A stretch of DNA of 64,000 bases from a phage, in sequence record PZ053912.1; one strand, 5' to 3'. Positions within the stretch are counted from its first letter, which is position 1. Every line of letters starts with the position of its first letter. Shown here piece by piece: positions 11,893-51,295 of the stretch. The notes below the pieces were generated by a model. It was given only the letters and a program-made list of their open reading frames with translations, had not been told where the DNA came from and searched no databases. Made by a program: the position numbers and the translations under genes.

Positions 11893-12993
11893 TTACGCTG
11901 TGAAGATTTTATCCCACATCGCAACAACTGCATCTCGGTTATACTTCTTCCATACTGCTTCAGCACGTTTAACTCGAGCTTCGTATGTGTCAGTGAATTC
12001 TAATACAGCTTTTGTGTAAAGCGCAACTACTTCTTTCTTAGGAGTAGAGGAATCAATTTCTACACGCACAGTATCTGGGTCGTATTCGAATGTCGCATGA
12101 GGATAATCCTTAAAAACTAACTGGATTACAGGGACACCTTTAGAGATAGCTTCAATAGAACTATTCTCTACTGTACCTGTGTCAGGACACGTATTAATAA
12201 GTGCTTTAGCTGTTTTAAGACGTTCCATGATTTCACTGTGTGGAGCATCAATAATAACAGGATATTTAGCTGGTGGTGCCCATTTGCTTGGACAGTATCC
12301 TACACCATTTTCGCCTAGTGCTTTAATCGCTTCAAGAGCAACATCAGTACGACGCATTTTAGTGTCATAACGTTGTGCACTAATAATCAGATCAGTCGCC
12401 GGAAGAACTTCAGGTTTCTCATTCAAACAAATAACCGGATAATCTTCGGCTTCAAACAATGGATTTGCTCGCCAATAATCATAATCAATTTTGTCAGTCA
12501 GAGCTGAAGTCATATGGCAATATTTACGTTCAAATTCACGGAAGGCTTTAGTAGGAGCATAACTCTTACCACCATTCTTATGAATTTGAATAGTCTGGTC
12601 CCAAATTTGAACAATGCCACGAGATACCGGTTCAAATGGTGTTGCCATAAAATTCTTATGAACTTTAGAGAGACCTGCGTCTTTAATTGCCTGAACGGTT
12701 AGTTTAGTCGGTTCCATAGTAACAACAAAATCGTATTCATGGATGCCGGCTAGTTCAACAATCTTACGAGCCATAGTATAACTCATACCTAGACTGAATT
12801 TAGTCAGATGACCAACAGGATGGTGTGTAACTTTCCAGTCACCAAACGTGTCATTATCAAAGCCGATATAATCAATATCAGCACCGATGGACACAAGATA
12901 TTTCAACACATTTAAATGTACTGCTTCAAGGCCACCTTGTACACGGTCGGGATTAAATGGGACTGCGCGAGATGGGATAAACATAACTTTCAT
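11893..12993 (-). CDS. putative GT-B fold glycosyltransferase (candidate hmC-DNA pentosyl/arabinosyltransferase)
   Basis: 366 aa; C-terminal VENSSIEAISKGVPVI resembles GT4/GT-B nucleotide-sugar binding motif (E..EA...G.PV); occupies the locus where T4 has gene 60; T4 a-gt and b-gt loci lack a glucosyltransferase here. Confidence 0.55.
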   Translation of the reverse strand: MKVMFIPSRAVPFNPDRVQGGLEAVHLNVLKYLVSIGADIDYIGFDNDTFGDWKVTHHPVGHLTKFSLGMSYTMARKIVELAGIHEYDFVVTMEPTKLTVQAIKDAGLSKVHKNFMATPFEPVSRGIVQIWDQTIQIHKNGGKSYAPTKAFREFERKYCHMTSALTDKIDYDYWRANPLFEAEDYPVICLNEKPEVLPATDLIISAQRYDTKMRRTDVALEAIKALGENGVGYCPSKWAPPAKYPVIIDAPHSEIMERLKTAKALINTCPDTGTVENSSIEAISKGVPVIQLVFKDYPHATFEYDPDTVRVEIDSSTPKKEVVALYTKAVLEFTDTYEARVKRAEAVWKKYNRDAVVAMWDKIFTA

Positions 12994-13009: not shown

Positions 13010-13036
13010 AATTAAAATGAAGCTCCCGAAGGAGCT
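13010..13036 (-). terminator. CUUCGG hairpin (agctcccgaaggagct) downstream of HNH gene
   Basis: Read from sequence. Confidence 0.45.
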
Positions 13037-13833
13037 TAGGACATCCAACACATTTTATAACCTTTGCAGGTTCTGTTAGGATTATTTAATGCTTTCAATA
13101 TATTAGAAGACCCTATATCTAAATACTCCCTTAATTCATAAAGATAGTTAAAATCAATAGTTTCACCTGTTTTTACACTTGTGATTCTTATAGGCCTTCT
13201 TTCATATTTAGATTTATACAACTCTCTAGTCTTAGCTTTAGTTTCTTCTGACCTAGGAGTGTATGGTTTAAATCCTTTTGTTTTAAATGTTTCCATTCTT
13301 GATTTAGTTATTTTATCCTGGTGTTCTTTTGTTTTTACAGGTGCTTTTCGCCCATTCTCCCAAGATAACTTGTTGGCCTGTATTATTTTATCTATTGCTT
13401 CTTGCGTATGAGTTTTACCATAAAATGGATTTAATTCGCCTATACGTTGTGAAGCAATATGTGACATTAATTCTCTTGTTGCTTTAGTATGTTTTTTACC
13501 TTTAAATGGGTTGCCATTTTTAGCAATCCATTCTTTCATAAATCTAGAGTGCTCTTTAGAGAATTCTTGTTTAAGCCAATCATAATCTCTAGAATTTCTA
13601 GCTCCCATGTAAAAAGCTCTAATAGCCATAAGCATAGAACGGTTCTTATGAATTTTATAAAGCAATAAATGGGCGATAAAATGCTCTCTAGGGGTCATTT
13701 TAACTAGATTTGATTTATCATTACTCCCACCCATAGATTTAGGCAAAATATGGTGAGTTTCAGTATAATTAGGAATAGTGCTGCGGTTTTTAGCCGCAGC
13801 GATAAGTTTATCATAAATTTTACGGTAATTCAT
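13036..13833 (-). CDS. free-standing HNH homing endonuclease with NUMOD3-like repeats (Mob-type)
   Basis: HHILPKSMGGSNDKSNLVKMTPREHFIAH HNH motif; repeated NPFKGKKHT / NPFYGKTHT motifs; ATG at 13833 overlapping gp39 stop (TAATG); track start 13848 is TTG. Confidence 0.8.
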   Translation of the reverse strand: MNYRKIYDKLIAAAKNRSTIPNYTETHHILPKSMGGSNDKSNLVKMTPREHFIAHLLLYKIHKNRSMLMAIRAFYMGARNSRDYDWLKQEFSKEHSRFMKEWIAKNGNPFKGKKHTKATRELMSHIASQRIGELNPFYGKTHTQEAIDKIIQANKLSWENGRKAPVKTKEHQDKITKSRMETFKTKGFKPYTPRSEETKAKTRELYKSKYERRPIRITSVKTGETIDFNYLYELREYLDIGSSNILKALNNPNRTCKGYKMCWMS

Positions 13834-15653
13834 TATCCTAGCATCCAATCTTTACGGAGTTCAGGGTCGTTACCCATGAGCATTTCAAATAGTTCTTTCC
13901 AATTTTCAGGAAGTTTAACTACGTCGTACACAGGGTTTTGAATCATTTCTTTATATTCATCCCGCTGAAGTGAGCCCAATCCCTTGATGTATCGAATACT
14001 ATGCTTAGGCAGTGTATCTTTAGCTTCTTCATACTCAGCTACAGTATAAAACCATTTTTGAGTTTTGCCAATTTGTGCAATAATTACAGGCGTTTTAACA
14101 AAGCGAATACGTCCTTGTTCAAACAATTCAGGCCAATTACTAAAGAAAGCAAGCAAAGCCGGATAGATACTTCCAAGACCGTCATGATCGGCATCGGTCA
14201 TAATTGCAATATTACGATAGTTCGTATTCTCTGCCTTTTCACCAAGAATAAGACCTGTGATAGCACAGATATCGAAGAGCTCTTTGTTCTTCATCATATC
14301 GGCATATGACATACCCCAGCTATTCATCACCTTACCACGTAATGGGAATCCGCCGTGTAGTTCACGGTCACGAACATCAATGAGATAACCAATTGCCGAA
14401 TCACCTTCTGTTAAAAACAATGTCGTATCTGCATCTTTACCACATTGGTTAGCTTTAATATGCTTATGAACCTTAGCTTTAGTTGCCTTTTTAGCTGCTT
14501 TAGTTTCTGCAGCCTTTTCTGCTGCCAATTTACGAGCTAATGCTGCTTCAACAATAGGCATAATCAAGGCTTCGTTTTTAAGAAGTGCCTGAGCAATTTT
14601 CTTAGCATCTAATTGGATATGATTACGAATATCACCATACGTTGACGTTAAACGTTCTTTAGTCTGAGAATCAAAACGCATGTTGCTCATGTCTCTAATA
14701 AACATCAACATTGTGAGACATTCTTTAACACGAGCTTTAGTGACTTCAATACCCTTATATTTCTTTTTAATACCGGGCAAAAGATGTTCGCAGATATCAT
14801 CCATTACACATTCAACATGATGACCACCATTTTTAGTATGGATGTTATTCACATAAGTTAAATGACGGAAGCCGTCTGGTGATGTTGTGAATGCTATAGA
14901 GACTTTATCATTTTCTTGAATGATGTTATCTTCGCCAAATTGTTTAGCAAATCGTTTAAAATTACCATCAACTTTTTTACCATTAAATGTGAACTTGATA
15001 TCAGGATAAACGACTGCCAATGTTTGAAGTCGGTCTAAAGTAATATCTAAATAAATTTGAGATAAATTATGCTCTTCAAATGAAGAGAAATCAGGAGTGA
15101 AGATTACTTTGGTGCCTTTACCTTTAGATTTCTTAGAAGACCATGATTTGTTTTCCATTCCGTTTGAACAGTTAACAGTGATTTCATTTTCGCCATCTGA
15201 CGTGATGCCTGTAAACAACGTAGAGAAGATATTAGTTAAACTACTCCCGACGCCGTTCATACCACCAGTCTTGCGTTCAGAGTCATCACCAAAATTACCA
15301 CCAGCCTTTGGAATAGTCCAGGCTGCTACAGGCCCAGGAATTTGTTCACCTGTTTGGTCGGTGACCATTGCTTGAGGAATACCACGTCCGTTATCTTCCA
15401 CCGAAACTTGATTATTTTTAATTTGCACATCAATTTTATTTGCAAACTTAAATGATGTACGAATAGCTTCATCAACCGAGTTGTCAATAATCTCATCGAT
15501 TAATTTAATCAGACCAGGAACATATTCAACTTGTTGATATTTACCAAACAAAAAACGCTCGTGGGCTTCTTTGGCCGAAGAACCAATATACATGCCACTG
15601 CGTTTCTTAATATGTTCTACATCTGACAATACCTTAATTTCATTTTTAATCAT
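13833..15653 (-). CDS. 39: DNA topoisomerase II large (ATPase, GyrB-like) subunit gp39, uninterrupted 606 aa form
   Basis: MIKNEIKVLSDVEHIKKRSGMYIGS..LIDEIIDNSVDEAIR GHKL ATPase; 606 aa equals T4 gp39+gp60 fused, so no separate gene 60. Confidence 0.9.
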   Translation of the reverse strand: MIKNEIKVLSDVEHIKKRSGMYIGSSAKEAHERFLFGKYQQVEYVPGLIKLIDEIIDNSVDEAIRTSFKFANKIDVQIKNNQVSVEDNGRGIPQAMVTDQTGEQIPGPVAAWTIPKAGGNFGDDSERKTGGMNGVGSSLTNIFSTLFTGITSDGENEITVNCSNGMENKSWSSKKSKGKGTKVIFTPDFSSFEEHNLSQIYLDITLDRLQTLAVVYPDIKFTFNGKKVDGNFKRFAKQFGEDNIIQENDKVSIAFTTSPDGFRHLTYVNNIHTKNGGHHVECVMDDICEHLLPGIKKKYKGIEVTKARVKECLTMLMFIRDMSNMRFDSQTKERLTSTYGDIRNHIQLDAKKIAQALLKNEALIMPIVEAALARKLAAEKAAETKAAKKATKAKVHKHIKANQCGKDADTTLFLTEGDSAIGYLIDVRDRELHGGFPLRGKVMNSWGMSYADMMKNKELFDICAITGLILGEKAENTNYRNIAIMTDADHDGLGSIYPALLAFFSNWPELFEQGRIRFVKTPVIIAQIGKTQKWFYTVAEYEEAKDTLPKHSIRYIKGLGSLQRDEYKEMIQNPVYDVVKLPENWKELFEMLMGNDPELRKDWMLG

Positions 15654-28762: not shown

Positions 28763-29011
28763 TTATTCTTTTTCGCGAATAATAATTACTTGTTGAGGCT
28801 GCTGAGCAGATTTCTTTTCGGCAACGATAGACCAAATTAAAGTTCCAATCCAACCAACCATCGTCCAGTTAAAGAGTAAAGATACGAAGAAGATTGCTGT
28901 TGTGCTTTTTGTGCCACGAATAAGTGCGATTACCCAAGGCAACATGTAAATGATGATTGAACCAATACCTGCGATTAAAACTGCTACTGAACTAGCTACG
29001 AATAATTCCAT
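28763..29011 (-). CDS. imm: superinfection immunity (Imm-like) inner-membrane protein
   Basis: 82 aa, two TM segments; LPWVIALIRG..AIFFVSLLFNWTMVGWIGTLIWSIV resembles the Imm family core; adjacent to sp rather than between 42 and 43. Confidence 0.5.
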   Translation of the reverse strand: MELFVASSVAVLIAGIGSIIIYMLPWVIALIRGTKSTTAIFFVSLLFNWTMVGWIGTLIWSIVAEKKSAQQPQQVIIIREKE

Positions 29012-29072
29012 GTTAATTTCCTCTTGATTTGTTATGTTTATAGTATCTTGGTTTAACTTTAGTGTAAACCAA

Positions 29073-29441
29073 TTAATTAAATTTGTTTAAACGTTCAATA
29101 CACTGGATGTAGTTATTCGCGATTTGTTTCTGGGTAGGCTCTTTACCAGTTGTTTCAACATAGCGAATGAATGCGATTTCAGTAGCCTGTAAGCAATGTT
29201 CTTTAACGCGCTGTTCTTTTGACATAGCTACAGTATCAGAATCACGATAACGTTGAGCATGAGCATCAGCTTGAATCATTCGATTACCTACAGTAACCGG
29301 GTCTTCCACTTCAACTTTAGGTTGGTTGTACTGTTTAACATTAGGATTGTAAATCAGTTGGCCAACGTTATTAGGGATAAAGCCATGGGCACCACATCCG
29401 GTTAATCCAAATACCATTGCTAAAGCGATTAATTTTTTCAT
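29073..29441 (-). CDS. putative lipoprotein
   Basis: Signal peptide with lipobox LTGC. Confidence 0.55.
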   Translation of the reverse strand: MKKLIALAMVFGLTGCGAHGFIPNNVGQLIYNPNVKQYNQPKVEVEDPVTVGNRMIQADAHAQRYRDSDTVAMSKEQRVKEHCLQATEIAFIRYVETTGKEPTQKQIANNYIQCIERLNKFN

Positions 29442-33804: not shown

Positions 33805-34353
33805 TTAACGAGCCCATTTGATAATTTCTGTAATCAAATAATTACGTTCGCTTGCATTAAATCCTATAACTTTGTTAGCACCGTCATGATTAAGTAATTG
33901 ATACGTTTGGATTTTGTTATGAATTGCAAACTCTTCAAAATATGAAATGACTGTATTAAAACCGAATGAAGACAAAGTAATAAGATCGTCTTCAAAACTT
34001 TCAGTCATTTCGTTACGTGTTAAAATAATTGTGAACACATCATGGTTTTGGCAAAGACGAACATAATCCTGTTCATAAACGTCAAGAACCGAGTCCGCAT
34101 CTTGTCGAATACGTCCATAAACCCAGTTACTAATATATCCACGGTCTAACAGATAAATCTTAGTAGGGTCTAAATAATTCAACATCGTTTCGAAACAGCC
34201 AACTTCATTTCGAGACTTAACATCGAAACGTCCATCAACTGTTCGTTTAGGGAAATCAATCTTTACATATCTTTCACTAATTTCCATTATGTCATTAATG
34301 AAAGTTGTTTTACCAGCATTATCCGGGCCATCTACTAAAATAATTTTAGCCAT
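33805..34353 (-). CDS. P-loop nucleotide kinase, thymidylate-kinase-like
   Basis: 182 aa; Walker A GPDNAGKTT and LLDRGYISNWVYG (DRY-type NMP-binding motif); sits where T4 has b-gt. Confidence 0.5.
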   Translation of the reverse strand: MAKIILVDGPDNAGKTTFINDIMEISERYVKIDFPKRTVDGRFDVKSRNEVGCFETMLNYLDPTKIYLLDRGYISNWVYGRIRQDADSVLDVYEQDYVRLCQNHDVFTIILTRNEMTESFEDDLITLSSFGFNTVISYFEEFAIHNKIQTYQLLNHDGANKVIGFNASERNYLITEIIKWAR

Positions 34354-34354
34354 T

Positions 34355-35254
34355 TTATTCCTCGATTACGACATCTTCATATTTAGGTATATTATACGGC
34401 GAAGAAATTAAAGCGTTAAAGTAGATGAACTCGCCAAGACCTGGATGGAATACTTCTTCAGGATTTTCGAAATATTGAATCTTCGGCCGTCCTTTAAGAA
34501 TTTGATAGTACTCAGTTTTAGTTGGTTTAAAAATTCGAATCAGCGCTTCTTCAGGATACTTATTTCTGTCGAAGCTATTATTTGGATCGGTTATATAAAG
34601 CGGTTGGCCTAATTGAATTGCACATTCAACCACTTGTTCAAAACGATAGCACGGGTCACTAATTCGAAATGGATGAAAAATACCATCTAGATGAATAGGA
34701 GCCAAATCACCTACAAGACGCTGCATGATGGAAGGACGTATAACTTTCTGGGTTACGATAATCTTATTACCATCTGCACCTGCGTTAACCAGCACTTCTT
34801 TTTGACGTTCATTCAACACAGTAGTTTGAAGTGAACGATTAACCGACAACATATCAGTTTTTAAGAATTCGTCAATATAAAAACGTGGTTTATTAGGGTC
34901 TGCAGTGATATTGAAATTGAATTCCACATCAAAAGCGCCGTCATATCCGGTGATATCTGTGATTAGAAAATCACAATCATAATAAGCAATTAATGAATCA
35001 ACCACAAATTCATTTTCAGACCAGAAATATTTACGAGTGTTATACGCGTTATCTTTATACCATAATGGAACAAACTTAAATTCTGGAAAAAGACGTTCGC
35101 ATTCTTTAATATCAGATGCATTACGTGGATATGTAATCACATCACCCGGATTAGCACGGTGCAAATGAAGTTGGAAGTTGCCATCCTTAAGGATAGCATA
35201 CTGTCCAGTTTCATAAGACCGCATACTCAAGATAGGTACGCGGAAATTAGCCAT
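34355..35254 (-). CDS. hypothetical protein (299 aa) at T4 b-gt locus
   Basis: ORF track; no recognisable motif by eye. Confidence 0.5.
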   Translation of the reverse strand: MANFRVPILSMRSYETGQYAILKDGNFQLHLHRANPGDVITYPRNASDIKECERLFPEFKFVPLWYKDNAYNTRKYFWSENEFVVDSLIAYYDCDFLITDITGYDGAFDVEFNFNITADPNKPRFYIDEFLKTDMLSVNRSLQTTVLNERQKEVLVNAGADGNKIIVTQKVIRPSIMQRLVGDLAPIHLDGIFHPFRISDPCYRFEQVVECAIQLGQPLYITDPNNSFDRNKYPEEALIRIFKPTKTEYYQILKGRPKIQYFENPEEVFHPGLGEFIYFNALISSPYNIPKYEDVVIEE

Positions 35255-35970
35255 TAGTCAAGGAATCCTTTAACATAATCAAAATCACGTTCAAACACAT
35301 GGGCACTTACCATGGTATGAGTATAATCACCAACTTCTACACCACATTCGTTAGCGATATAATGAAGTAATTTTCCTTGGAGATAAAAATCCAACTGCAT
35401 AACAACAGCACAGTTCTGAGAACGCATATGACAGTGGGTATAAAGCTTACCATCACGAATATAATAAGTCACTGAGTCAGTACATGGATATTCAAGTGTT
35501 TCGTCCGAATCAAGCAAAGCCTGATCTGAACTTTCAAGAATTTGAAACACAACTCTTCGAGAGTTAGGTTTCTCTTTAAGTTCTTTGAGAAGAGCTGGTA
35601 ATTGGGCCGCAATGCGAGGACCATAGAAAGTGTTGAAGTTCGCCGGCAAAACATCTGATTTTGGTTTAGAAATAAATTTAGCGACATTAGGATATGCCTT
35701 AAACGCTTCTTCTGCGTTGGTACCACCAGAAATCATAAACTTCCAGAAGTCTTCGGCATATTCATAAGAGATGCGGTTAATACGTGGGTCGGTCATTTTG
35801 AATGATGATGGAGTGTCAACAACTACTGTCATAGACCCAATTTCATTACAACGTCCAATACGAGAATCAGTTACGAATTCCGGGTTTTCTAAAATTTCAC
35901 GATTGACTGCTTTAAATGCGGTTTGAAAATCTGCGGCTTTGATATATTTCATTGTGTTATGTTTTCCCAT
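35254..35970 (-). CDS. 42: dCMP hydroxymethylase gp42 (thymidylate synthase fold)
   Basis: 238 aa; GAGGT SD; CTDSVTYYIRDGKLYTHCHMRSQNCAVV resembles T4 gp42 catalytic region. Confidence 0.75.
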   Translation of the reverse strand: MGKHNTMKYIKAADFQTAFKAVNREILENPEFVTDSRIGRCNEIGSMTVVVDTPSSFKMTDPRINRISYEYAEDFWKFMISGGTNAEEAFKAYPNVAKFISKPKSDVLPANFNTFYGPRIAAQLPALLKELKEKPNSRRVVFQILESSDQALLDSDETLEYPCTDSVTYYIRDGKLYTHCHMRSQNCAVVMQLDFYLQGKLLHYIANECGVEVGDYTHTMVSAHVFERDFDYVKGFLD

Positions 35971-36153
35971 GTTTACCTCAATACAATTTATTATATACTC
36001 AATTCGTAAAGCTTATTTGAATTTCTTGACAATGTTGATATAACGTAAAGCTTCAGCATCGATACTTCCAAGAACACTATGAAGAAATGCATCAGCGTAG
36101 TATTCCAATTGAACAGGTTTCTTTAATCACTTTAGCCGCTTTAGTTTCAAACA

Positions 36154-36177
36154 GGCCCTTATGGGCCTGTTTAAGAA
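36154..36177 (-). terminator. perfect 10-bp stem hairpin (aaacaggccc / gggcctgttt) downstream of the sugar cassette
   Basis: Read from sequence; weak U-tract. Confidence 0.4.
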
Positions 36178-36249
36178 TTTGTTCGTTGCTGTTAATTTTC
36201 ATAGTCAAAATCTCTTCATTAAGTTGGTGGTTAAAAGTTTTTCTAGAAA

Positions 36250-37410
36250 TCATTCCGGGTACCTCAAAGCGTCATCAGAGTTAGTTATATCAATAATAGA
36301 TATAGAGTTTTCTGCTAACCCATTTTTAGATAACTGACGTTTATAATATCTTTCACAATATGTACACGTCGTCCCGCAGATTTCATTAGCACAATCGAAA
36401 TCTGGATGTCTGAACCACCTTTTTTCTAAAAAGCCGTCTAACAAAGAGGTTTCAATATTTACTGTATGTGAAAACTCAATTTCGTTTTCAAGAGTGAAAA
36501 TAGTCTCTAAAGGCTTCCACAGTTCTAACAAATTACCTTCAAACTTTTCAGAAGCGTATGCTTCAAGAACTTTCAAAATGTAGTCTGTGCTACCTGTACG
36601 TCCTGAAACTTTGAATTGAGTGATACCAATATCATTATAAAGTTTCAAATCTTGAGGACGAACAAAACGAGTTCTCAACCAGTTAAATGGGTCTGTATCA
36701 CGAGCTTTAATACAGTGCTGCATAGGATATCCGTTTAAGGATTTAGCATCATCAGCTGTAACATCAGTACTATGGAAAATATAGCAAGAGTCACGATAGC
36801 TACAATGTGTTGTATACCCTTTACCAGCATTAGAACAGAACTCATTTACAAGAACTTCAAATATTATATTGTTCTTATTGCAAAACTCTGCTGCACGCTT
36901 CAGGAAAGAAACTGAACGGTTCTTATGAATTCCACAGCAGACCTTTTTGATATTATATTGGTCATGCAAATATTTGATTTGAGTTACAGCATCGACATGT
37001 AGAATTGTTGAAACTTCAATCTCAATGTCTTTATTGACTTCACGAACAATTTCCATAACAACAGGGTTAGCGATAGTAATACGCCATACGCCTATTGACC
37101 AAAGATACTGAACATAATCCTGAATAGCTTTCTTCTTCCACTCAACTAGTTCTCTTTTTGAACCAGGATTTATCGTGTTGAGTGTATAGTTAAAGCAAAT
37201 ACCTAATTCGTTACAACGTTTAACGTAATCTTCTAACATCTTTTTGTCAACGTCAGGAAGCCTAAAATCAGGTCTGGCTGCTACAAAAGCCATTTCTCTT
37301 GTAGAGCCGTATACTTCATTTATCAAGCTATTAGGATAAGTTTTATTGAGCTCTACGATTTTATCAAGAAGAGCTAAATCAAAATTCGTTCCGATTTTAA
37401 AAGTATTCAT
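36250..37410 (-). CDS. Cys-rich putative metalloenzyme, possibly peptidase-U32-family-like (Fe-S?)
   Basis: 386 aa; IFEVLVNEFCSNAGKGYTTHCSYRDSC and C-terminal CANEICGTTCTYC (Cx4Cx3Cx2C) cluster; co-operonic with the sugar genes. Confidence 0.4.
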   Translation of the reverse strand: MNTFKIGTNFDLALLDKIVELNKTYPNSLINEVYGSTREMAFVAARPDFRLPDVDKKMLEDYVKRCNELGICFNYTLNTINPGSKRELVEWKKKAIQDYVQYLWSIGVWRITIANPVVMEIVREVNKDIEIEVSTILHVDAVTQIKYLHDQYNIKKVCCGIHKNRSVSFLKRAAEFCNKNNIIFEVLVNEFCSNAGKGYTTHCSYRDSCYIFHSTDVTADDAKSLNGYPMQHCIKARDTDPFNWLRTRFVRPQDLKLYNDIGITQFKVSGRTGSTDYILKVLEAYASEKFEGNLLELWKPLETIFTLENEIEFSHTVNIETSLLDGFLEKRWFRHPDFDCANEICGTTCTYCERYYKRQLSKNGLAENSISIIDITNSDDALRYPE

Positions 37411-37467: not shown

Positions 37468-37869
37468 TTATAGATTCGGTTTATATGATTTAAATGTTTC
37501 GAATTCGCCTTTATTCATAAGAGCTTTGAATTCGTCAGGACGCATAGCTTTGTCGTCGATAATCCAATCATATACTGGTTTATGTGTTAGCAAATTATGG
37601 TACTTCAAGCCAATGTTTGCCAAGTTCTGAATCAGACTTGGGAGAATGTCAATTGCTATACGACCAGGACCTACTGACTTCATACCACGAGCAGTGTAAA
37701 GCGTTATGGTATGCCCTGCATCATACAGGGCATTAATGGCAGACACCATTTCGACGTCTGGTTTGAAGTTCACGTAATCACGATTGTTATTCCACTCTGT
37801 TATACAATCATCGACATCAAAACAAAGATTAAGCATGTTTTCTACACGGTGCATTAGATTCGTTCCCAT
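37468..37869 (-). CDS. putative HAD-like phosphatase
   Basis: 133 aa; N-terminal FDVDDCIT resembles HAD motif I (DxDx[TV]); short for the family. Confidence 0.4.
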   Translation of the reverse strand: MGTNLMHRVENMLNLCFDVDDCITEWNNNRDYVNFKPDVEMVSAINALYDAGHTITLYTARGMKSVGPGRIAIDILPSLIQNLANIGLKYHNLLTHKPVYDWIIDDKAMRPDEFKALMNKGEFETFKSYKPNL

Positions 37870-39542
37870 TGATGAGTGATATCGCCACCGATTGGACGAT
37901 AGGAAACACCAGTTTCTTTATCAGTTAGTACCCATTTACCAGGATTTTTTGTAATCAGAGTAGCCGTTACAGGTTCTGCTACGTCATAACTAATAGAGCC
38001 GTCTTGAAGTACACGGCCCATGTTACGTAATTGCTTAGTCAGAAGTTCCATACCTTTATAATATGCGGCTACCGCTTTAAGTGGATTATTCTTGAAATAA
38101 CCACCTAATGCAATCCAGATAATTGCCACTGCCAAATGATGATACTCGTTAAACGAACTCATCTTTCCATATTTGTAAACTAATGGATTGATGTTAATAG
38201 TCACATTACAAGTTGTTTCATCAATAGTAAACTGTCCCCAGGTCGGATTAGCATTGAATTCATCATAACCTGAAACAGCATAAAGCACTTTAGCTTCATC
38301 GTACAATTTTGGCCCGTAAATCTTGGTTTCGCCAAAATATCCACGAGGGTCGATAAACTTGACTTCACCATTATCAGTAATCATAGTATTACTGAAGTTC
38401 GGGTCACCATGAATAACAGAGTACTGTCCCTGAGAACGGTTATGATAACGAATAAGGTGTTCTAAAGCTTGTTTCAACATTGGCTTCAGACGTCCAATCT
38501 TAGTGTAGTTCACATGTGTGATTTTACCGAATGAATCAATCAATGGTTGAATACTTTCACAACGATCAATAACTTTCGTATAGAACTCTTTAGTGAAATC
38601 ACGGCGAACAGTTTCAGGACTTACAAAATAAGTGTCTGTGCTGAATTTCAGTGCATCTAAAATTGCATCAACAATTTGTGGACGAGCAAGACTCGATTTG
38701 GATTTAATATATTCAAATGCCGGCTTACCTTTAATGCGTTCCATAATAAAGTGGCCGCCAGGATGATAACTTACAATCCGTGGAACTGAATCTGATTTAA
38801 CTTTCTTATACCAATTGACTTCATCTTTTTGAAGTGCAACGCCCTGTTCTGTTAAAGCAATCTTTGTTACCGTTTCTTCGCCAATTTCAACTGCATTAAA
38901 ACTACGATTAAGTTCACGAACTTCATGAGCTTTTTCAAGTTTAGGCATATCACCAAGGTCGATGATATTCATAAGCTCTGATTTATTGAATGCGCTGCCG
39001 TAAAGGAATTCTACGAAATCACGTCCTTTGCAGTATTCATGAATTTCCTCATCAGTAGAACCCATATAGAATTCCCAGTCTTTGAACTGATAAATTCCTA
39101 CAACATTACCACCTGTTGAACCTACATTAGTGATATTTTCACCGTCGAAATTATATCGACATTCGTCACCCTTAACATAGATTGCGTTAACATTCCAAGA
39201 CCACGAACCAAAATCAGGAATAATATCACACCAGTTAACAATTACATTATGGCCGTCTAAATCTTTGTGCAATTTAGCAAGAGCATAAGCAGAACCATAC
39301 GCTTCATCAACTGTACGAATAGTCACATTGAACCCTTCTTGCTCACAATAAGCTCGAACAGTTTCAGCAAATTTTGAATGAACTACTACAATAATTTCAT
39401 CTGCGCCAAGGTCAGAATAAATTGTATACAAATTGCTCAGAATAGTGTCTTGTTTATAGTTAACAAGCACCTTAGGAATATGATGCGTTATTGGATACAA
39501 ACGAGTTGCCAGTCCAGCACCAAGAATAACAGCTTTTTTCAT
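37854..39542 (-). CDS. bifunctional sugar-1-phosphate nucleotidyltransferase / sugar kinase
   Basis: 562 aa; N-terminal ILGAGLATRLYPIT (G-x-G-T-R-L NTP-transferase motif); C-terminal HGDPNFSN...FIDPRGYFG (APH/choline-kinase-like catalytic loop and DFG-like). Confidence 0.7.
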   Translation of the reverse strand: MKKAVILGAGLATRLYPITHHIPKVLVNYKQDTILSNLYTIYSDLGADEIIVVVHSKFAETVRAYCEQEGFNVTIRTVDEAYGSAYALAKLHKDLDGHNVIVNWCDIIPDFGSWSWNVNAIYVKGDECRYNFDGENITNVGSTGGNVVGIYQFKDWEFYMGSTDEEIHEYCKGRDFVEFLYGSAFNKSELMNIIDLGDMPKLEKAHEVRELNRSFNAVEIGEETVTKIALTEQGVALQKDEVNWYKKVKSDSVPRIVSYHPGGHFIMERIKGKPAFEYIKSKSSLARPQIVDAILDALKFSTDTYFVSPETVRRDFTKEFYTKVIDRCESIQPLIDSFGKITHVNYTKIGRLKPMLKQALEHLIRYHNRSQGQYSVIHGDPNFSNTMITDNGEVKFIDPRGYFGETKIYGPKLYDEAKVLYAVSGYDEFNANPTWGQFTIDETTCNVTININPLVYKYGKMSSFNEYHHLAVAIIWIALGGYFKNNPLKAVAAYYKGMELLTKQLRNMGRVLQDGSISYDVAEPVTATLITKNPGKWVLTDKETGVSYRPIGGDITHQWERI

Positions 39543-39583: not shown

Positions 39584-39727
39584 CTAGTTAAAGCATTCAT
39601 ACTTTGCTTGTAGTCCAATCATAATCCATCCAATTACAAGTGTTGGAATCATTACTGGAGCCGTTAAGCTCCAGTAGATAGTCATGACAAGCATCAATAG
39701 TAAAAGTCCTATTGTTATTGCTTTCAT
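39584..39727 (-). CDS. small hydrophobic membrane protein (47 aa)
   Basis: Manual translation MKAITIGLLLLMLVMTIYWSLTAPVMIPTLVIGWIMIGLQAKYECFN; ATGA overlap with SIS gene stop. Confidence 0.35.
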   Translation of the reverse strand: MKAITIGLLLLMLVMTIYWSLTAPVMIPTLVIGWIMIGLQAKYECFN

Positions 39728-40359
39728 TGTTCGCCTCGTAACATGGCACCTAGTGCACCGCCAGGGTGGAACTTAAGGAAGTCATTAGAGGTAAATCCAC
39801 GCTCAGACGAAAGGTTGATAGCAAACGTATCGATAAGCGCTAACAACAATGTAGTGGACATGGTCGGAGCCAGAGAATTCTCATCAACCTCTACTGCGAT
39901 GCCTGTACAGAAAGAGTAATCAAAAAGGGCTTCATTTTCTTGTGGAATGTCCGGGTTACAATGCAACAGAATCTGTTTGACGTTCGGACGAATCATTTTA
40001 AGATGCTTAGCCACGCCTATCATTTCTTCAGTTTTACCAGAACGACTAATATGAATCAACACATCATTAGGCGCAATGAATCCTGCATCACCGTGAGAAT
40101 AATGCCCAGTGTTCAAGTACATACTCGGGATACCGAGTGAAGCAAATGTCTCAGAAGCTTTAGTTGCAATATTAGCATTCTTACCAACACCTGTAATAAT
40201 TACTCGGCTTTCATAATTACTAAGTCCTGGGCGTCGAAGAGTTTCTAGAATAGCATTATAACGAGCAGGGTTTTGACTAATTACTTTGGCCATAGCGGCC
40301 AAAGAAGAAGCTTGTTTTATGATTGCGTCAATAGCGATAGTAATAGGAGTAGTTTTCAT
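39724..40359 (-). CDS. SIS-domain phosphosugar isomerase, KdsD/GutQ-like (putative arabinose-5-phosphate isomerase)
   Basis: 211 aa; VIITGVGKNANIA, HGDAG, SRSGKTEE, APTMSTT, FHPGGALG align with KdsD/GutQ SIS motifs; lacks CBS domains. Confidence 0.75.
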   Translation of the reverse strand: MKTTPITIAIDAIIKQASSLAAMAKVISQNPARYNAILETLRRPGLSNYESRVIITGVGKNANIATKASETFASLGIPSMYLNTGHYSHGDAGFIAPNDVLIHISRSGKTEEMIGVAKHLKMIRPNVKQILLHCNPDIPQENEALFDYSFCTGIAVEVDENSLAPTMSTTLLLALIDTFAINLSSERGFTSNDFLKFHPGGALGAMLRGEQ

Positions 40360-48505: not shown

Positions 48506-48734
48506 TACACGCTTCAGCCATTTTAAGAATAGAGCCAGGAGTATCGTTGTCCATTATATTAAAGCTAAATTCAATAGCCCAGTCGGTGCAGACATGAACT
48601 GCTTTAACTTCATTGCCTTCAACGCGTAATGGCTCAATCCAATACTTGATAGTGTTCTCGAATCCATCATCGTCTTTAACGTCCATTTCGACTTCAAGCC
48701 TGAGTCCAGCATTGTTAAATTCATCTAAAGTCAT
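48477..48734 (-). CDS. hypothetical protein (46.2 position)
   Basis: ORF track 85 aa. Confidence 0.45.
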   Translation of the reverse strand: MTLDEFNNAGLRLEVEMDVKDDDGFENTIKYWIEPLRVEGNEVKAVHVCTDWAIEFSFNIMDNDTPGSILKMAEACIEDAYNDED

Positions 48735-49750
48735 TGTGTTGCCTCAATATAAAGTTCGTTGGAATATTTGACCAGCGCTTCTCTGTCTTCGTCTGAGATA
48801 TCTGGAATCGCGTCAATATATTCTTTAATGATATCTTGAAGTGATTTAATCTCGATTTCCTGGTCGTCATCAGATTCAACACTGTTATCAACTTTAGAAA
48901 CCATACGAAGAGAGTGGACTACTTTTTCAAGTTCAGATTCAAACTTAGTCAACTCTGAATCAATTTCTGATACTATAACACGTAAGGCTAGATTAGTATA
49001 ATCAGAATAATTGATTTTGCCTTTAAACGGATAAGTGATTCGTCGATGCCATGTTGTTTCATTAGGAATAAATTCCATACGTTCAACATCAGTGTCAAAT
49101 ACCCAGAATCCGCGCGGGTCGTTCTCATCGCCTGCAGTAAGGGTCCATGGTGTCCCAATATATTTGACGTTAGCAGCTTCAGAGATTGTGTGGAAGTGGC
49201 CGGACCAGACTTGTTTATAGGTCTTTAAGAAATCAGGTTCAAGCCCATGAGACTTCATTCCTTTATAGAAATAAAAGCCATTCAGTTCCCAGTGCCCAAC
49301 ACAATACGCGGCAGAAGAAGTCTTGATGTGCTCTAAGATTTCACCTGTATTTTCTTCACACATCCATGGAACGATATCAATCAGACATCCGTCAAAATCT
49401 ACAGTAGTTGGATGCTCGTAAATAGTAAAGTTTTCAAATTGAGTTAACAATTCAGAAACAGTGTTAGGTGTTATTGTATTCTTGAACGCCATGTCATGGT
49501 TTCCTATCGTGACATGAACGTGAATGCCTGCTTTAGAAATCATATCAACGATTTCACGATTGAATTCCATTGTACGATGTGTTATTGCTTTACGGACGTC
49601 AAACCAATCACCATACTGAATCCAAGTTTTAATCCCGTGTTTCTTAGAGTATTCAATTGCTTGACGAATACCATCACGTTGAATATCTTGAACCCATGGG
49701 TCATCTTGTTTGACTCCGATATGGAAGTCGCCTAAGTGCAAAATTTTCAT
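48731..49750 (-). CDS. 47: recombination endonuclease subunit gp47 (Mre11/SbcD-like)
   Basis: 339 aa; phosphoesterase motifs LHLGDFH, GNHD. Confidence 0.9.
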   Translation of the reverse strand: MKILHLGDFHIGVKQDDPWVQDIQRDGIRQAIEYSKKHGIKTWIQYGDWFDVRKAITHRTMEFNREIVDMISKAGIHVHVTIGNHDMAFKNTITPNTVSELLTQFENFTIYEHPTTVDFDGCLIDIVPWMCEENTGEILEHIKTSSAAYCVGHWELNGFYFYKGMKSHGLEPDFLKTYKQVWSGHFHTISEAANVKYIGTPWTLTAGDENDPRGFWVFDTDVERMEFIPNETTWHRRITYPFKGKINYSDYTNLALRVIVSEIDSELTKFESELEKVVHSLRMVSKVDNSVESDDDQEIEIKSLQDIIKEYIDAIPDISDEDREALVKYSNELYIEATQ

Positions 49751-49819
49751 ATTATTTCCTCATTAGTTAATTCATTCTATCATCCGTTTATAAAGCAAAA
49801 AAGGAACTCCGAAGAGTTC

Positions 49820-49993
49820 CTATCCACATAGTACACCGTACAGAGGCTCATTTGAACTTTTAAATCGAATGGGCTTGTATGTAATAGTTCCTTCGGCTTT
49901 AGCTTTATCATAAGACTCTTTAAAACGTCTCATTCTTTCTGCTTTGCCTTTACGGATTTTATCGAAATTTTCAGAGGTCAGGTCGTTCGTCAT
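49820..49993 (-). CDS. small basic protein (57 aa)
   Basis: Manual translation MTNDLTSENFDKIRKGKAERMRRFKESYDKAKAEGT..; GAGGTGA SD; below track cutoff. Confidence 0.3.
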   Translation of the reverse strand: MTNDLTSENFDKIRKGKAERMRRFKESYDKAKAEGTITYKPIRFKSSNEPLYGVLCG

Positions 49994-50032
49994 GCATAAT
50001 CACCTCTCAGAAAATACCTAAATCGATTTCTC

Positions 50033-50254
50033 TCATCGTTTCCACCATTTCTTAACTTGAAATGAATCAACCCACACGAGTTGTTTTGGGTCTGCCTTTA
50101 CAATAGGCGGACAAATTTCTGTAATAGAACCGTCGTGATATTCCTTTTCGGAAATTTTAACACAAAGAGGACCTCCCAATTTAAGGGTGAATCCTGCGTT
50201 CAGATTAAGACGTTTAAACTTTGTTTGAACTAGCGCCATTAATGATGTCCTCAA
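50033..50254 (-). CDS. hypothetical protein (73 aa)
   Basis: ORF track. Confidence 0.4.
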   Translation of the reverse strand: MRTSLMALVQTKFKRLNLNAGFTLKLGGPLCVKISEKEYHDGSITEICPPIVKADPKQLVWVDSFQVKKWWKR

Positions 50255-50537
50255 TAGCCTGACGAGTAGTAATCCACTGGATTTTAATTAACTTGTCATT
50301 ATATGGTTGTCGTAGAATATCCCGAGATTTCTTAATAGCATATTCGTAAGCTTCGAAGTTGTTTTGAATTGCTGCTTCTTGAGCATGAGCATAAAGACGG
50401 TTTAGTTCAAAACGATTCTTTTTAAGAATCTTTTCGGATTTTTTACGTGCTTCAGCTTCATTTTTCTTTTGGATTTCTTGTAGCATTTTAGCTACTGCAT
50501 CTTCTGCTTCTTTATTTTCAATAATCTCGGTAGTCAT
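50214..50537 (-). CDS. hypothetical protein (107 aa)
   Basis: ORF track. Confidence 0.45.
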   Translation of the reverse strand: MTTEIIENKEAEDAVAKMLQEIQKKNEAEARKKSEKILKKNRFELNRLYAHAQEAAIQNNFEAYEYAIKKSRDILRQPYNDKLIKIQWITTRQAIEDIINGASSNKV

Positions 50538-50538
50538 A

Positions 50539-50748
50539 TTATCTCATTAAATTAAAATAAAAACGTCCATCCTCTTCAATACAGAACTCATACTCAACCG
50601 GAGTCCCATTTATCGAAAATGACACGTCATGTGGGTTCAAAGGGTCGATGTCAAAATTAATTTTAAATTCACGACCCAACAGTTTTACCAAATAAGGGAT
50701 TGCTTCGTCAAAAGGTTCTTCTAAGTAGTTAGAGATGTCAATTGTCAT
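50539..50748 (-). CDS. hypothetical protein (about 69 aa from internal ATG)
   Basis: Track ORF 50539..50832 overlaps gp55; trimmed. Confidence 0.35.
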
Positions 50749-51295
50749 CCTCATATAAAAAATCCAAACTAGGCGAATCGCTAACAACTTCCTTCTTTTC
50801 AGCCCCAGGAGCTTTATAAGCGGATTCTTCATAATGCGTCATTTTATCGTAGATGTCTTGAATAAACGTTTCATCTACCAACGCTACCATATCATCGTCA
50901 TGACTGTCGTAGACATTATGAACGAAGTAACTATATTTCTTTGCAACTTCCTTACGTTCTTTTTTGATACGTTGGACAAAAGCATTAAAACAAGCTCGAG
51001 TTATGTATGCATGTGGGTTATTGTACTTAGTTTCGTCGAAATTATGAAGTCCCTTAATAGAGGCTTCAATCCCATCTGCAATCATCTCCTGCTTCCAAGA
51101 CTGGGTATATCCTGAAAAGTTGAAACGTTTGGACAGGCCTTCGGCGATAAGCATAATTGCTAAACCGATGGTATCATTCTGACGAATAATTTTGTTTGGG
51201 TCTTTATTATTTAAGAGCTCCTTTTTCCACTCGATTATAGCGGCGAGAAGCTCTTTATTATTCACATAGTTATTTTTAGGTTTTTGTTCAGTCAT
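50738..51295 (-). CDS. 55: late sigma factor gp55
   Basis: 185 aa; [52 protein letters not shown] matches T4 gp55. Confidence 0.9.

Follow-up and report, generated by a model that had tools for sequence, protein, structure and literature searches.

The closest described system is that of phage RB69, for which no homologues of the T4 glucosyltransferase genes a-gt and b-gt were reported (Thomas 2018, PMC6024577; Lee 2026, PMC13326640) and whose arabinosylation pathway has been published (Thomas 2018; Lee 2026; He 2026). RB69 DNA contains mono- and di-arabinosylated 5-hydroxycytosine, as determined by LC-MS and NMR (PMC13326640), and mono- and di-arabinosyl-5-hydroxy-dC was found in the virion DNA of the Mosigvirus NicPhage (PMC13390438). 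RB69 gp48 made 5hodC in vivo with incorporation of 18O2, and flavin-dependent hydroxylation of dCMP with O2 has been shown for this enzyme and is cited for its HY126 counterpart (PMC13326640); the HY126 system is the subject of He 2026, as cited in PMC13326640. Asparagine at the position of ThyA D169 was described as the signature of 5-hydroxy-dCMP synthases (Lee 2026, PMC13326640), and the function of a phosphatase and the UDP-arabinofuranose-making role of a bifunctional enzyme were assigned in the same work (PMC13326640). Both T4 and phage Mineola have a-gt in the slot bounded by a-gt.2 and gene 47.

The window analyzed here, i.e., the whole stretch of 64 kb out of a genome of ~168 kb, belongs to a Mosigvirus, an RB69-type T-even coliphage, and shows 99% identity to Mosigvirus genomes. 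The best genome matches are 97–98% identical across 25-kb stretches, in a pattern corresponding to a mosaic of Mosigvirus genomes. The closest genomes include HY126 (99.2% across the interval between genes 47 and 55), and the DNA of this interval is 98.5% identical to that of RB69, which contains the same four ORFs, likewise annotated as a-gt.2 to a-gt.5, and the same hairpin. There are also differences from RB69. A 299-aa transferase and a 562-aa kinase/nucleotidyltransferase are single intact ORFs in the window, whereas they are split in the RB69 record, where the splits were put down to sequencing errors (Lee 2026, PMC13326640); the ORF049c homologue is truncated, with 86% identity across the aligned part; and gene 39 is separated from the gp3-type transferase by an inserted HNH homing endonuclease. 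PhAPEC2, a 99%-identical relative, was used as a stand-in for the full genome, minus 533 bp inside gene 46. Because the window covers 64 of ~168 kb, the absence of genes beyond it is judged from PhAPEC2 and the literature.

The interval is bounded by the start codon of gene 47, which ends at 49750, and the stop codon of gene 55, which begins at 50738. Its features are as follows (percentages are identities to the T4 and RB69 counterparts):

48731–49750, minus strand: gene 47, SbcD-like recombination nuclease subunit, lower boundary (T4 gp47 75.5% over 339 aa; Metallophos domain)
49751–49786, minus strand: 36-nt spacer standing where T4 has 47.1, a-gt and mobB (sequence read directly)
49820–49993, minus strand: a-gt.2 orthologue, 57 aa (DUF5486, E = 4.5e-28; T4 75%; RB69 98%)
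50033–50239, minus strand: a-gt.3 orthologue, 68 aa (phrog_1648; T4 69%; RB69 98.5% over 68 aa)
50214–50537, minus strand: a-gt.4 orthologue, 107 aa (DUF2654, E = 1.6e-27; T4 58%; RB69 99%)
50539–50748, minus strand: a-gt.5 orthologue, 69 aa (DUF5491, E = 5e-13; T4 47%; RB69 100%)
50738–51295, minus strand: gene 55, late sigma factor, upper boundary (T4 gp55 90.7%)

The equivalent of gene 47 is annotated as gp47 in both PhAPEC2 and RB69, and the a-gt.5 orthologue shares 11 nt with the end of gene 55. A TTG-started, 73-aa reading of a-gt.3 (to 50254) probably does not represent the real start.

According to the preliminary description, a-gt is absent between genes 47 and 55, and the analysis bears this out. 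Only 69 nt (49751–49819) separate the a-gt.2 stop from the gene 47 start, with no a-gt between them, and a T4 block of 2254 bp (47.1, a-gt and mobB) corresponds to the 36 nt of 49751–49786; nucleotide homology to T4 restarts only at 49787, which is T4 L002 position 18703. The spacer contains the gene 47 Shine-Dalgarno sequence GAGGAAA (49761–49755) and a -10-like TAGAAT (49779–49774). Searches of the window by tblastn (word size 2, E up to 100) and phmmer --max against six-frame ORFs of at least 40 aa revealed no a-gt homologue (best E 1.1–1.4), and nothing in 49751–50737 matched a-gt significantly, the top match being a 44-aa stretch of a-gt.5 at E = 1.4. By tblastn, no a-gt homologue was found in the PhAPEC2 genome minus the 533 bp in gene 46 (best E = 0.087). 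The gene b-gt, also described as missing, had no homologue in the window (phmmer --max, best E 1.1) or in the nearly complete PhAPEC2 (best E 5.4), and ba-gt of the T2/T6 type (RB27 query) was found neither in the window (best E 0.099) nor in PhAPEC2 (0.81). As a positive control, the a-gt and b-gt queries recovered T4 at E = 0. The tblastn check with T4 a-gt and b-gt proposed in the preliminary description was therefore negative in both the window and PhAPEC2. A broader tblastn search with T4 a-gt in 50,697 phage records matched 657 of them; among the matches listed, all were Tequatrovirus-type or phages of Klebsiella/Raoultella, with no Mosigvirus, and the identity bands leave no room for the ~150 Mosigvirus records. 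The empty a-gt slot is real, but it has long been known and is already explained: RB69-like phages use arabinose-decorated 5-hydroxycytosine, the genes for which lie elsewhere in the window.

The small ORFs of 57–107 aa, previously counted as three or four, are four in number, all on the minus strand. Judged by their orthology, they are the usual neighbors of the a-gt slot and neither a replacement of a-gt nor peculiar to this phage; orthologues of a-gt.2 to a-gt.5 coexist with a-gt in T4 and Mineola. Their interpretation as fragments of a decayed a-gt was rejected, since each is a full-length orthologue of one of these genes.

We consider it highly probable that this phage is a Mosigvirus with an empty a-gt slot in which arabinosyl-5-hydroxycytosine DNA replaces the T4-type glucosyl-hmC. 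The relevant genes in the window are the following:

11893–12993, minus strand: second GT-B (GT4-like) glycosyltransferase, 366 aa, beside rIIA (RB69 ORF003c/gp3 orthologue; RB69p003 98.6%)
33805–34353, minus strand: thymidylate-kinase-like nucleotide kinase in the T4 b-gt/segA slot (RB69 gp45 orthologue; phrog_761, E = 6e-45; RB69p045 98.4%)
34355–35254, minus strand: GT-B glycosyltransferase, 299 aa, at the T4 b-gt position (intact version of RB69 gp46:47)
35254–35970, minus strand: putative 5-hydroxy-dCMP synthase of the thymidylate synthase family, at the gene 42 position (RB69 gp48 orthologue; Thymidylat_synt, PF00303)
36250–37410, minus strand: Peptidase-U32-like protein (RB69 gp50 orthologue; PF01136, E = 7e-11; RB69p050 99%; Lee 2026, Table 1)
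37468–37854, minus strand: HAD-like sugar phosphatase (RB69 gp51/HY126 AfhF analogue; phrog_1238; RB69p051 99.2%)
37854–39542, minus strand: bifunctional sugar-1-phosphate nucleotidyltransferase (N-terminal)/kinase (C-terminal) (RB69 gp52:53/HY126 AfhE analogue; RB69p052 and RB69p053 96–99%)
39724–40359, minus strand: arabinose-5-phosphate isomerase (RB69 gp55 orthologue; SIS domain, E = 1e-10; RB69p055 100%)

Orthologues of RB69 gp45–gp55 and gp3 are all present at 96–100% identity, except for the short ORF049c. The UDP-arabinose supply genes (isomerase, kinase/nucleotidyltransferase and phosphatase) were recognized by their domains and RB69 orthology, and the synthesis cluster stands in place of imm between genes 42 and 43. 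In the bifunctional enzyme, the NTP_transferase domain was detected at E = 1e-9, and the kinase-family matches (APH, Fructosamin_kin, EcKL) were weak and below the Pfam cut-offs. Both imm and imm.1 are relocated in the window relative to T4. The 366-aa transferase matched PDB 9iqz/9ir0 over its full length (E = 2e-252), and 9iqz is described as 'phage HY126 glycosyltransferase'; both this protein and the synthase homologue are near-identical to the respective PDB chains (9iqz and 9iqc/9ir2). The entries 9iqc/9ir2/9iqu, named only 'Thymidylate synthase' in PDB, are probably HY126 proteins, to judge from the citation and the adjacent entry codes. The 299-aa protein adjoins the synthase and is modeled as a GT-B fold; it is proposed to be the first DNA arabinosyltransferase. 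Gene content, orthology, transferase fold, synthase signature residues and the lack of a T4-type glucosyltransferase were established in this analysis.

In the proposed pathway, the flavin-dependent thymidylate-synthase homologue (35254–35970) would convert dCMP to 5-hydroxy-dCMP, which would substitute for dC in the DNA. The isomerase (39724–40359), the kinase/uridylyltransferase (37854–39542) and the phosphatase (37468–37854) would form the UDP-arabinofuranose route, and the GT-B transferases at 34355–35254 and 11893–12993 would add arabinose to the 5-hydroxyl in two steps, first one residue and then another. We infer the modification in the phage itself from the 96–100% identity of these genes to those of RB69/HY126, and its chemistry from published work on RB69, HY126 and NicPhage. 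The difference from T4 is therefore considerable: nothing in the window has sequence homology to T4 a-gt or b-gt, and the slot is empty; the base would be 5-hydroxy-C instead of 5-hydroxymethyl-C; the sugar would be arabinofuranose instead of glucose; and the sugar donor must come from phage enzymes.

A key question is whether the base could still be T4-type hmC bearing another sugar, i.e., arabosylated 5-hydroxymethylcytosine. The arabinose reported in RB69 DNA was attributed to a modification named ara-hmC (Thomas 2018, PMC6024577), and the gene 42 position does encode an enzyme of the thymidylate synthase family. However, this enzyme shares only 24.8% identity with T4 gp42, whereas the neighboring flanking genes reach 62–91%, and its alignment (PCT, MRSQN, QLD) shows N, not D, at ThyA D169 and D at the ThyA N177 position. 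The enzyme has the fold family, the catalytic Cys, N177D (dCMP specificity) and D169N as the sequence features of a 5-hydroxy-dCMP synthase, and both the low identity and the lack of D at ThyA-169 depart from a gp42 orthologue. Moreover, the enzyme is 99.2% identical to RB69 gp48 (RB69p048), the in vivo producer of 5hodC (PMC13326640), and it matched PDB 9iqc/9ir2 at E = 8e-161 with 5 differences in 238 aa (~98% identity). MS fragment ions and NMR point to 5-hydroxycytosine and not hmC (PMC13326640), and no second gp42 homologue was found in the PhAPEC2 genome, where the synthase is the only gene-42 relative. Arabosylated hmC is thus very unlikely. The preliminary description had suggested a different hmC decoration from T4; a different decoration stands, but on these sequence features (24.8% identity to gp42, D169N) the base decorated in the phage is very probably not hmC. 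As the phage probably makes no hydroxymethylcytosine, a-gt and b-gt would not be needed.

Even less credible is that a-gt and/or b-gt were relocated outside the 64-kb window and the DNA is still glucosylated. T-even accessory genes do shuffle, as the moved imm and imm.1 illustrate, and the window shows only 64 of ~168 kb, but the PhAPEC2 searches with a-gt, b-gt and ba-gt never went below E = 0.087, against E = 0 in the T4 control for a-gt and b-gt; both the reports of Thomas 2018 and Lee 2026 on RB69 and the a-gt identity bands, which exclude the ~150 Mosigvirus records, argue in the same direction. A takeover of the a-gt function by any of the small ORFs is effectively refuted: these ORFs sit in the interval and are of unknown function, but at 57–107 aa they are much too short for a GT-B or GT-A transferase, their T4 orthologues occur alongside a-gt itself in T4 and Mineola, and two bona fide GT-B enzymes are encoded elsewhere in the window. 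Arabinosyl-5-hydroxycytosine DNA is accordingly the preferred reading. Nothing new was learned about the modification as such, because chemical and structural studies had resolved its pathway between 2018 and 2026.

The CUUCGG hairpin mentioned in the preliminary description was recovered on the minus strand at 49821–49802 as AGGAACUC-UUCG-GAGUUCCU with a U6 run after it; its folding energy is -13.9 kcal/mol (z = -2.7), and it was also called by a terminator scan. The other 'cttcgg' string, at ~49890, was rejected as a hairpin (minimum free energy 0). The hairpin is part of a larger putative element:

49774–49821, minus strand: predicted composite terminator/middle-promoter element, PmSL-like (hairpin, U-run, MotA-box, spacer, -10)

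Here, a TGCTT Mot box and a properly spaced -10 come immediately after the stem-loop terminator: the MotA-box TTTGCTTTA (49799–49791), an 11-nt spacer and TAGAAT (49779–49774), which together constitute a predicted Mot-box promoter at 49799–49774. The Mot-box/-10 pattern was observed 3 times on the minus strand of the window, compared with 0.2 ± 0.4 in shuffled sequences; the composite also has a near-copy before gene 39 (15718–15676). The pattern search also accounts for the conserved GCTTTAT beside the hairpin. A generic sigma-70 scan gave no convincing minus-strand promoter near gene 47, which is expected because the predicted promoter is MotA-dependent, although such a miss is still no positive evidence. 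No late promoter (TATAAATA) was found in the interval, the window's only matches being at 978, 24909 and 57150. The single composite in the empty slot would end the transcript running from a-gt.5 to a-gt.2 and restart transcription into gene 47.

Composite terminator-promoters of this type have been described in T4-like phages as PeSLs/PmSLs (Comeau 2014, PMC4122927; Arbiol 2010, PMC2839356). The window resembles them in having a stem-loop followed by a promoter (TGCTT Mot box and -10) that is repeated in the genome and lies at an indel boundary. The comparisons in those papers concerned the pairs RB49/phi1, PST/T4 and nt-1/KVP40, and neither the a-gt slot nor RB69 is mentioned in the consulted part of PMC4122927; recombination at the a-gt site is our inference. 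The a-gt slot is filled in Tequatrovirus and Jiaodavirus, where a-gt (plus mobB in T4) lies between two composites: in T4 and Mineola, a UUCG hairpin with a Mot-box-like sequence behind it occurs on either side of the gene, and these composites are orthologous to the one in the window. In Mosigvirus and Dhakavirus, there is only a single hairpin/Mot-box composite. The composite in the window appears to mark the boundary of an a-gt cassette, and a-gt would have been gained or lost via recombination between composites. We tentatively suggest, as a possibility rather than the likelier case, that a-gt forms a discrete mobile cassette with a copy of the UUCG-terminator/MotA-box composite at either end, that the single copy in Mosigvirus/Dhakavirus is an 'empty-site' copy, and that recombination between such composites switches between glucosyl-hmC and arabinosyl-5hoC decoration.

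To our knowledge, such a cassette model has not been stated before for the a-gt locus. If true, the cassette would be a specific and biologically important case for the PeSL/PmSL shuffling model.

The main value of the check is that 'different hmC decoration' becomes 'different base and different sugar', with the responsible genes located in the window. The combined absence of a-gt and b-gt is a quick genomic marker of a T-even-like phage without glucosyl-hmC DNA, and in this window it correctly indicates the RB69-type arabosyl-5-hydroxycytosine pathway. The type of decoration bears on recombination with T4 and on the behavior of the DNA in sequencing and cloning, as well as on which restriction, CRISPR and type IV systems (GmrSD/BrxU, McrBC) are evaded or triggered.

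Every gene in this region of the window lies on the minus strand, and 49751-50737, where T4 carries the alpha-glucosyltransferase gene a-gt, is exactly the intergenic block between genes 47 and 55, because the boundaries of both genes abut it. The RB69 genes annotated a-gt.2 to a-gt.5 are 98-100% identical to the four small ORFs found there.

Table. Genes of the 47-55 region, with identity to the T4 counterpart
48731-49750, minus strand, gene 47 (SbcD-like nuclease subunit), 75.5%
49820-49993, minus strand, a-gt.2, 57 aa, Pfam DUF5486, 75%
50033-50239, minus strand, a-gt.3, 68 aa, 69%
50214-50537, minus strand, a-gt.4, 107 aa, DUF2654, 58%
50539-50748, minus strand, a-gt.5, 69 aa, DUF5491, 47%
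50738-51295, minus strand, gene 55 (late sigma factor), 90.7%

The preliminary description had claimed that only small ORFs (57-107 aa) and a CUUCGG hairpin occupy this slot, that a-gt is absent from it and that the beta-glucosyltransferase gene b-gt is missing as well; all of this was borne out. Queries for a-gt and b-gt (T4, NC_000866) and for the T2/T6-type ba-gt (RB27) found no homolog in the 64-kb window by tblastn and phmmer --max (best E = 1.1 for a-gt/b-gt and 0.099 for ba-gt). Since the window represents only ~ 38% of the genome, the genome of PhAPEC2, which is 99.3% identical over the region, was also searched, apart from 533 bp inside gene 46, and none of the three genes was detected (best E = 0.087). 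As a positive control, the a-gt and b-gt queries recovered T4 itself with E = 0. Relatives of a-gt occur in 657 of 50,697 phage records; among the matches listed, all belong to Tequatrovirus-type phages or phages of Klebsiella/Raoultella, and the distribution of identities cannot accommodate the roughly 150 Mosigvirus genomes.

Many Mosigvirus genomes, among them PhAPEC2, ST2, HY126, SF and moha, match the interval and its flanks at 99% identity. Over the interval, identity is 98.5% with RB69 and 98% with the Mosigvirus NicPhage; the best collection matches over 25-kb stretches reach 97-98%. The whole interval is present in one piece in ~ 148 records, and this arrangement is therefore typical of Mosigvirus. 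The gene is absent from Dhakavirus WG01 too (order 55, a-gt.5, a-gt.4, a-gt.3, a-gt.2, 47.1, 47), whereas in Jiaodavirus Mineola a-gt is present between a-gt.2 and 47.

Nucleotide homology with T4 ends at the gene 47 start and restarts at 49787, immediately beyond the Mot box behind the a-gt.2 hairpin; a 2254-bp T4 block (47.1, a-gt and the homing endonuclease gene mobB) is replaced by 36 nt in the window. The hairpin (49821-49802, minus strand) reads AGGAACUC-UUCG-GAGUUCCU followed by six U and begins within the stop codon of a-gt.2, precisely as its T4 counterpart does. It folds at -13.9 kcal/mol, a value equaled by 4 of 200 shuffles, and is detected by the terminator scan. Directly after the U-run lies a perfect MotA box, TTTGCTTTA (49799-49791), and then 11 nt, TAGAAT (49779-49774), the gene 47 Shine-Dalgarno sequence and ATG. 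The minus strand of the window contains three instances of the strict pattern WWWTGCTTYA-N11-13-TANNNT, versus 0.2 +/- 0.4 in dinucleotide shuffles. Upstream of gene 39, a second composite (15718-15676, minus strand) combines a UUCG hairpin with the TTTGCTTTA Mot box and the -10 element TAGAAT. The gene 39 and gene 47 composites (the latter 49774-49821, minus strand) are near-identical and share the 13-mer CGGATGATAGAAT; on sequence, they are PmSL-like (promoter-middle stem-loop) dispersed regulatory repeats and predicted promoters.

In T4 and Mineola, a-gt (with mobB in T4) lies between two hairpin/Mot-box-like composites, whereas RB69, the window and WG01 have one each. This pattern fits the PeSL/PmSL 'mobile regulatory cassette' model of Arbiol 2010 (PMC2839356) and Comeau 2014 (PMC4122927). 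The comparison of these short sequences suggests that a-gt may have been gained or lost as a cassette through recombination between composites.

The T4 b-gt slot, between uvsX and gene 42, holds two genes in the window; a further transferase gene adjoins rIIA.
33805-34353, minus strand, thymidylate-kinase-like gene
34355-35254, minus strand, 299-aa ORF
11893-12993, minus strand, second transferase, 98.6% identical to RB69 ORF003c (PDB 9iqz, E = 2e-252)

The 299-aa ORF has no match by Pfam or by PDB sequence. Its model matches sucrose-phosphate synthase (6kih, 17.4), BshA (16.5), PimA (15.8), the phage HY126 glycosyltransferase (9iqz, 14.5) and, at rank 32, T4 a-gt (1y6f, 13.1); it is thus a GT-B transferase, with kinship to a-gt at the fold level only.

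Between the ORF003c-type gene and gene 39 lies an inserted 270-aa HNH/NUMOD3 homing endonuclease (13036-13848, minus strand), which shares 46% identity with T4 MobB over the N-terminal 116 aa of the latter; T4 mobB likewise adjoins a DNA glycosyltransferase gene (a-gt). RB69 and PhAPEC2 lack this endonuclease, and of the 188 phage records that match, only 28 span its full stretch; it is therefore a polymorphic mobile element.

The gene 42 position and the slot between it and gene 43 contain the following genes.
35254-35970, minus strand, thymidylate-synthase-family ORF
36250-37410, minus strand, U32-peptidase-like gene, 386 aa, inside the arabinosylation cluster, 99% identical to RB69 gp50
37854-39542, minus strand, nucleotidyltransferase/kinase fusion, 562 aa
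between 35254-35970 and gene 43, minus strand, HAD-like phosphatase
between 35254-35970 and gene 43, minus strand, SIS-domain arabinose-5-phosphate isomerase

The 35254-35970 product is not a gp42 orthologue: its identity with T4 gp42 is only 24.8%, versus 62-91% for neighboring genes, and the PhAPEC2 genome has no gp42 relative other than a protein of this type. The window protein shares 99.2% identity with RB69 gp48, and 5 of its 238 residues differ from PDB 9iqc/9ir2. When it is aligned with T4 gp42, RB27 gp42, phage Td and E. coli ThyA (the ThyA and Td rows give the same register), the catalytic Cys is kept, the ThyA N177 position is D, conferring dCMP specificity, and the D169 position is N, versus D in gp42, Td and ThyA. 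D169N is the predictive signature reported by Lee et al. 2026 (PMC13326640), in whose work RB69 gp48 forms 5-hydroxy-dCMP with oxygen from O2 and a flavin cofactor.

The four 42-43 slot proteins are each 96-100% identical to their counterparts among RB69 gp50-gp55. These sugar-activation genes stand where T4 has imm and imm.1, whose homologues in the window (64% and 32% identity with T4) are located at 28766-29435 (minus strand), near sp and dmd. Flanked by the genes for the predicted 5hodCMP synthase and the U32-like protein, a homologue of RB69 ORF049c (36092-36253, minus strand) is truncated to 53 aa versus 79 aa in RB69, with only residues 1-49 aligning (86% identity). The 299-aa and 562-aa genes are single intact ORFs in the window, unlike in the RB69 reference record, where both are split (ORF046c/047c and ORF052c/053c), in line with the statement of Lee et al. 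2026 that sequencing errors account for these splits in RB69.

In RB69, Thomas et al. 2018 (PMC6024577) found arabinose in the DNA and no homologue of a-gt, b-gt or ba-gt; they suggested that ORF003c is the transferase and named the base ara-hmC. On the basis of LC-MS/MS and NMR, Lee et al. 2026 corrected the structure to 5-hydroxycytosine carrying one or two arabinoses, and assigned gp46:47 and gp3 a transferase role and gp51-gp55 a part in UDP-arabinofuranose synthesis; the U32-family gp50 is listed just as a 'sugar or heterocycle reductase', without a definite pathway step. The same cluster is described there for Mosigvirus, Dhakavirus and other genera, and He et al. (Nat Chem Biol 2026) is cited there for the HY126 'Afh' enzymes and their crystal structures. 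In NicPhage, 5-ara-dC and 5-ara-ara-dC were measured in the Durham Collection paper (PMC13390438).

A decoration different from that of T4, as the preliminary description proposed, thus holds, but 'different hmC decoration chemistry' is unsupported, because the evidence, for the window at the sequence level, points to a change of both sugar and base, the latter being 5-hydroxycytosine. The genes responsible lie in the same window and would make a-gt and b-gt dispensable, and the absence of a-gt and b-gt together with another decoration is already established for RB69-type phages.
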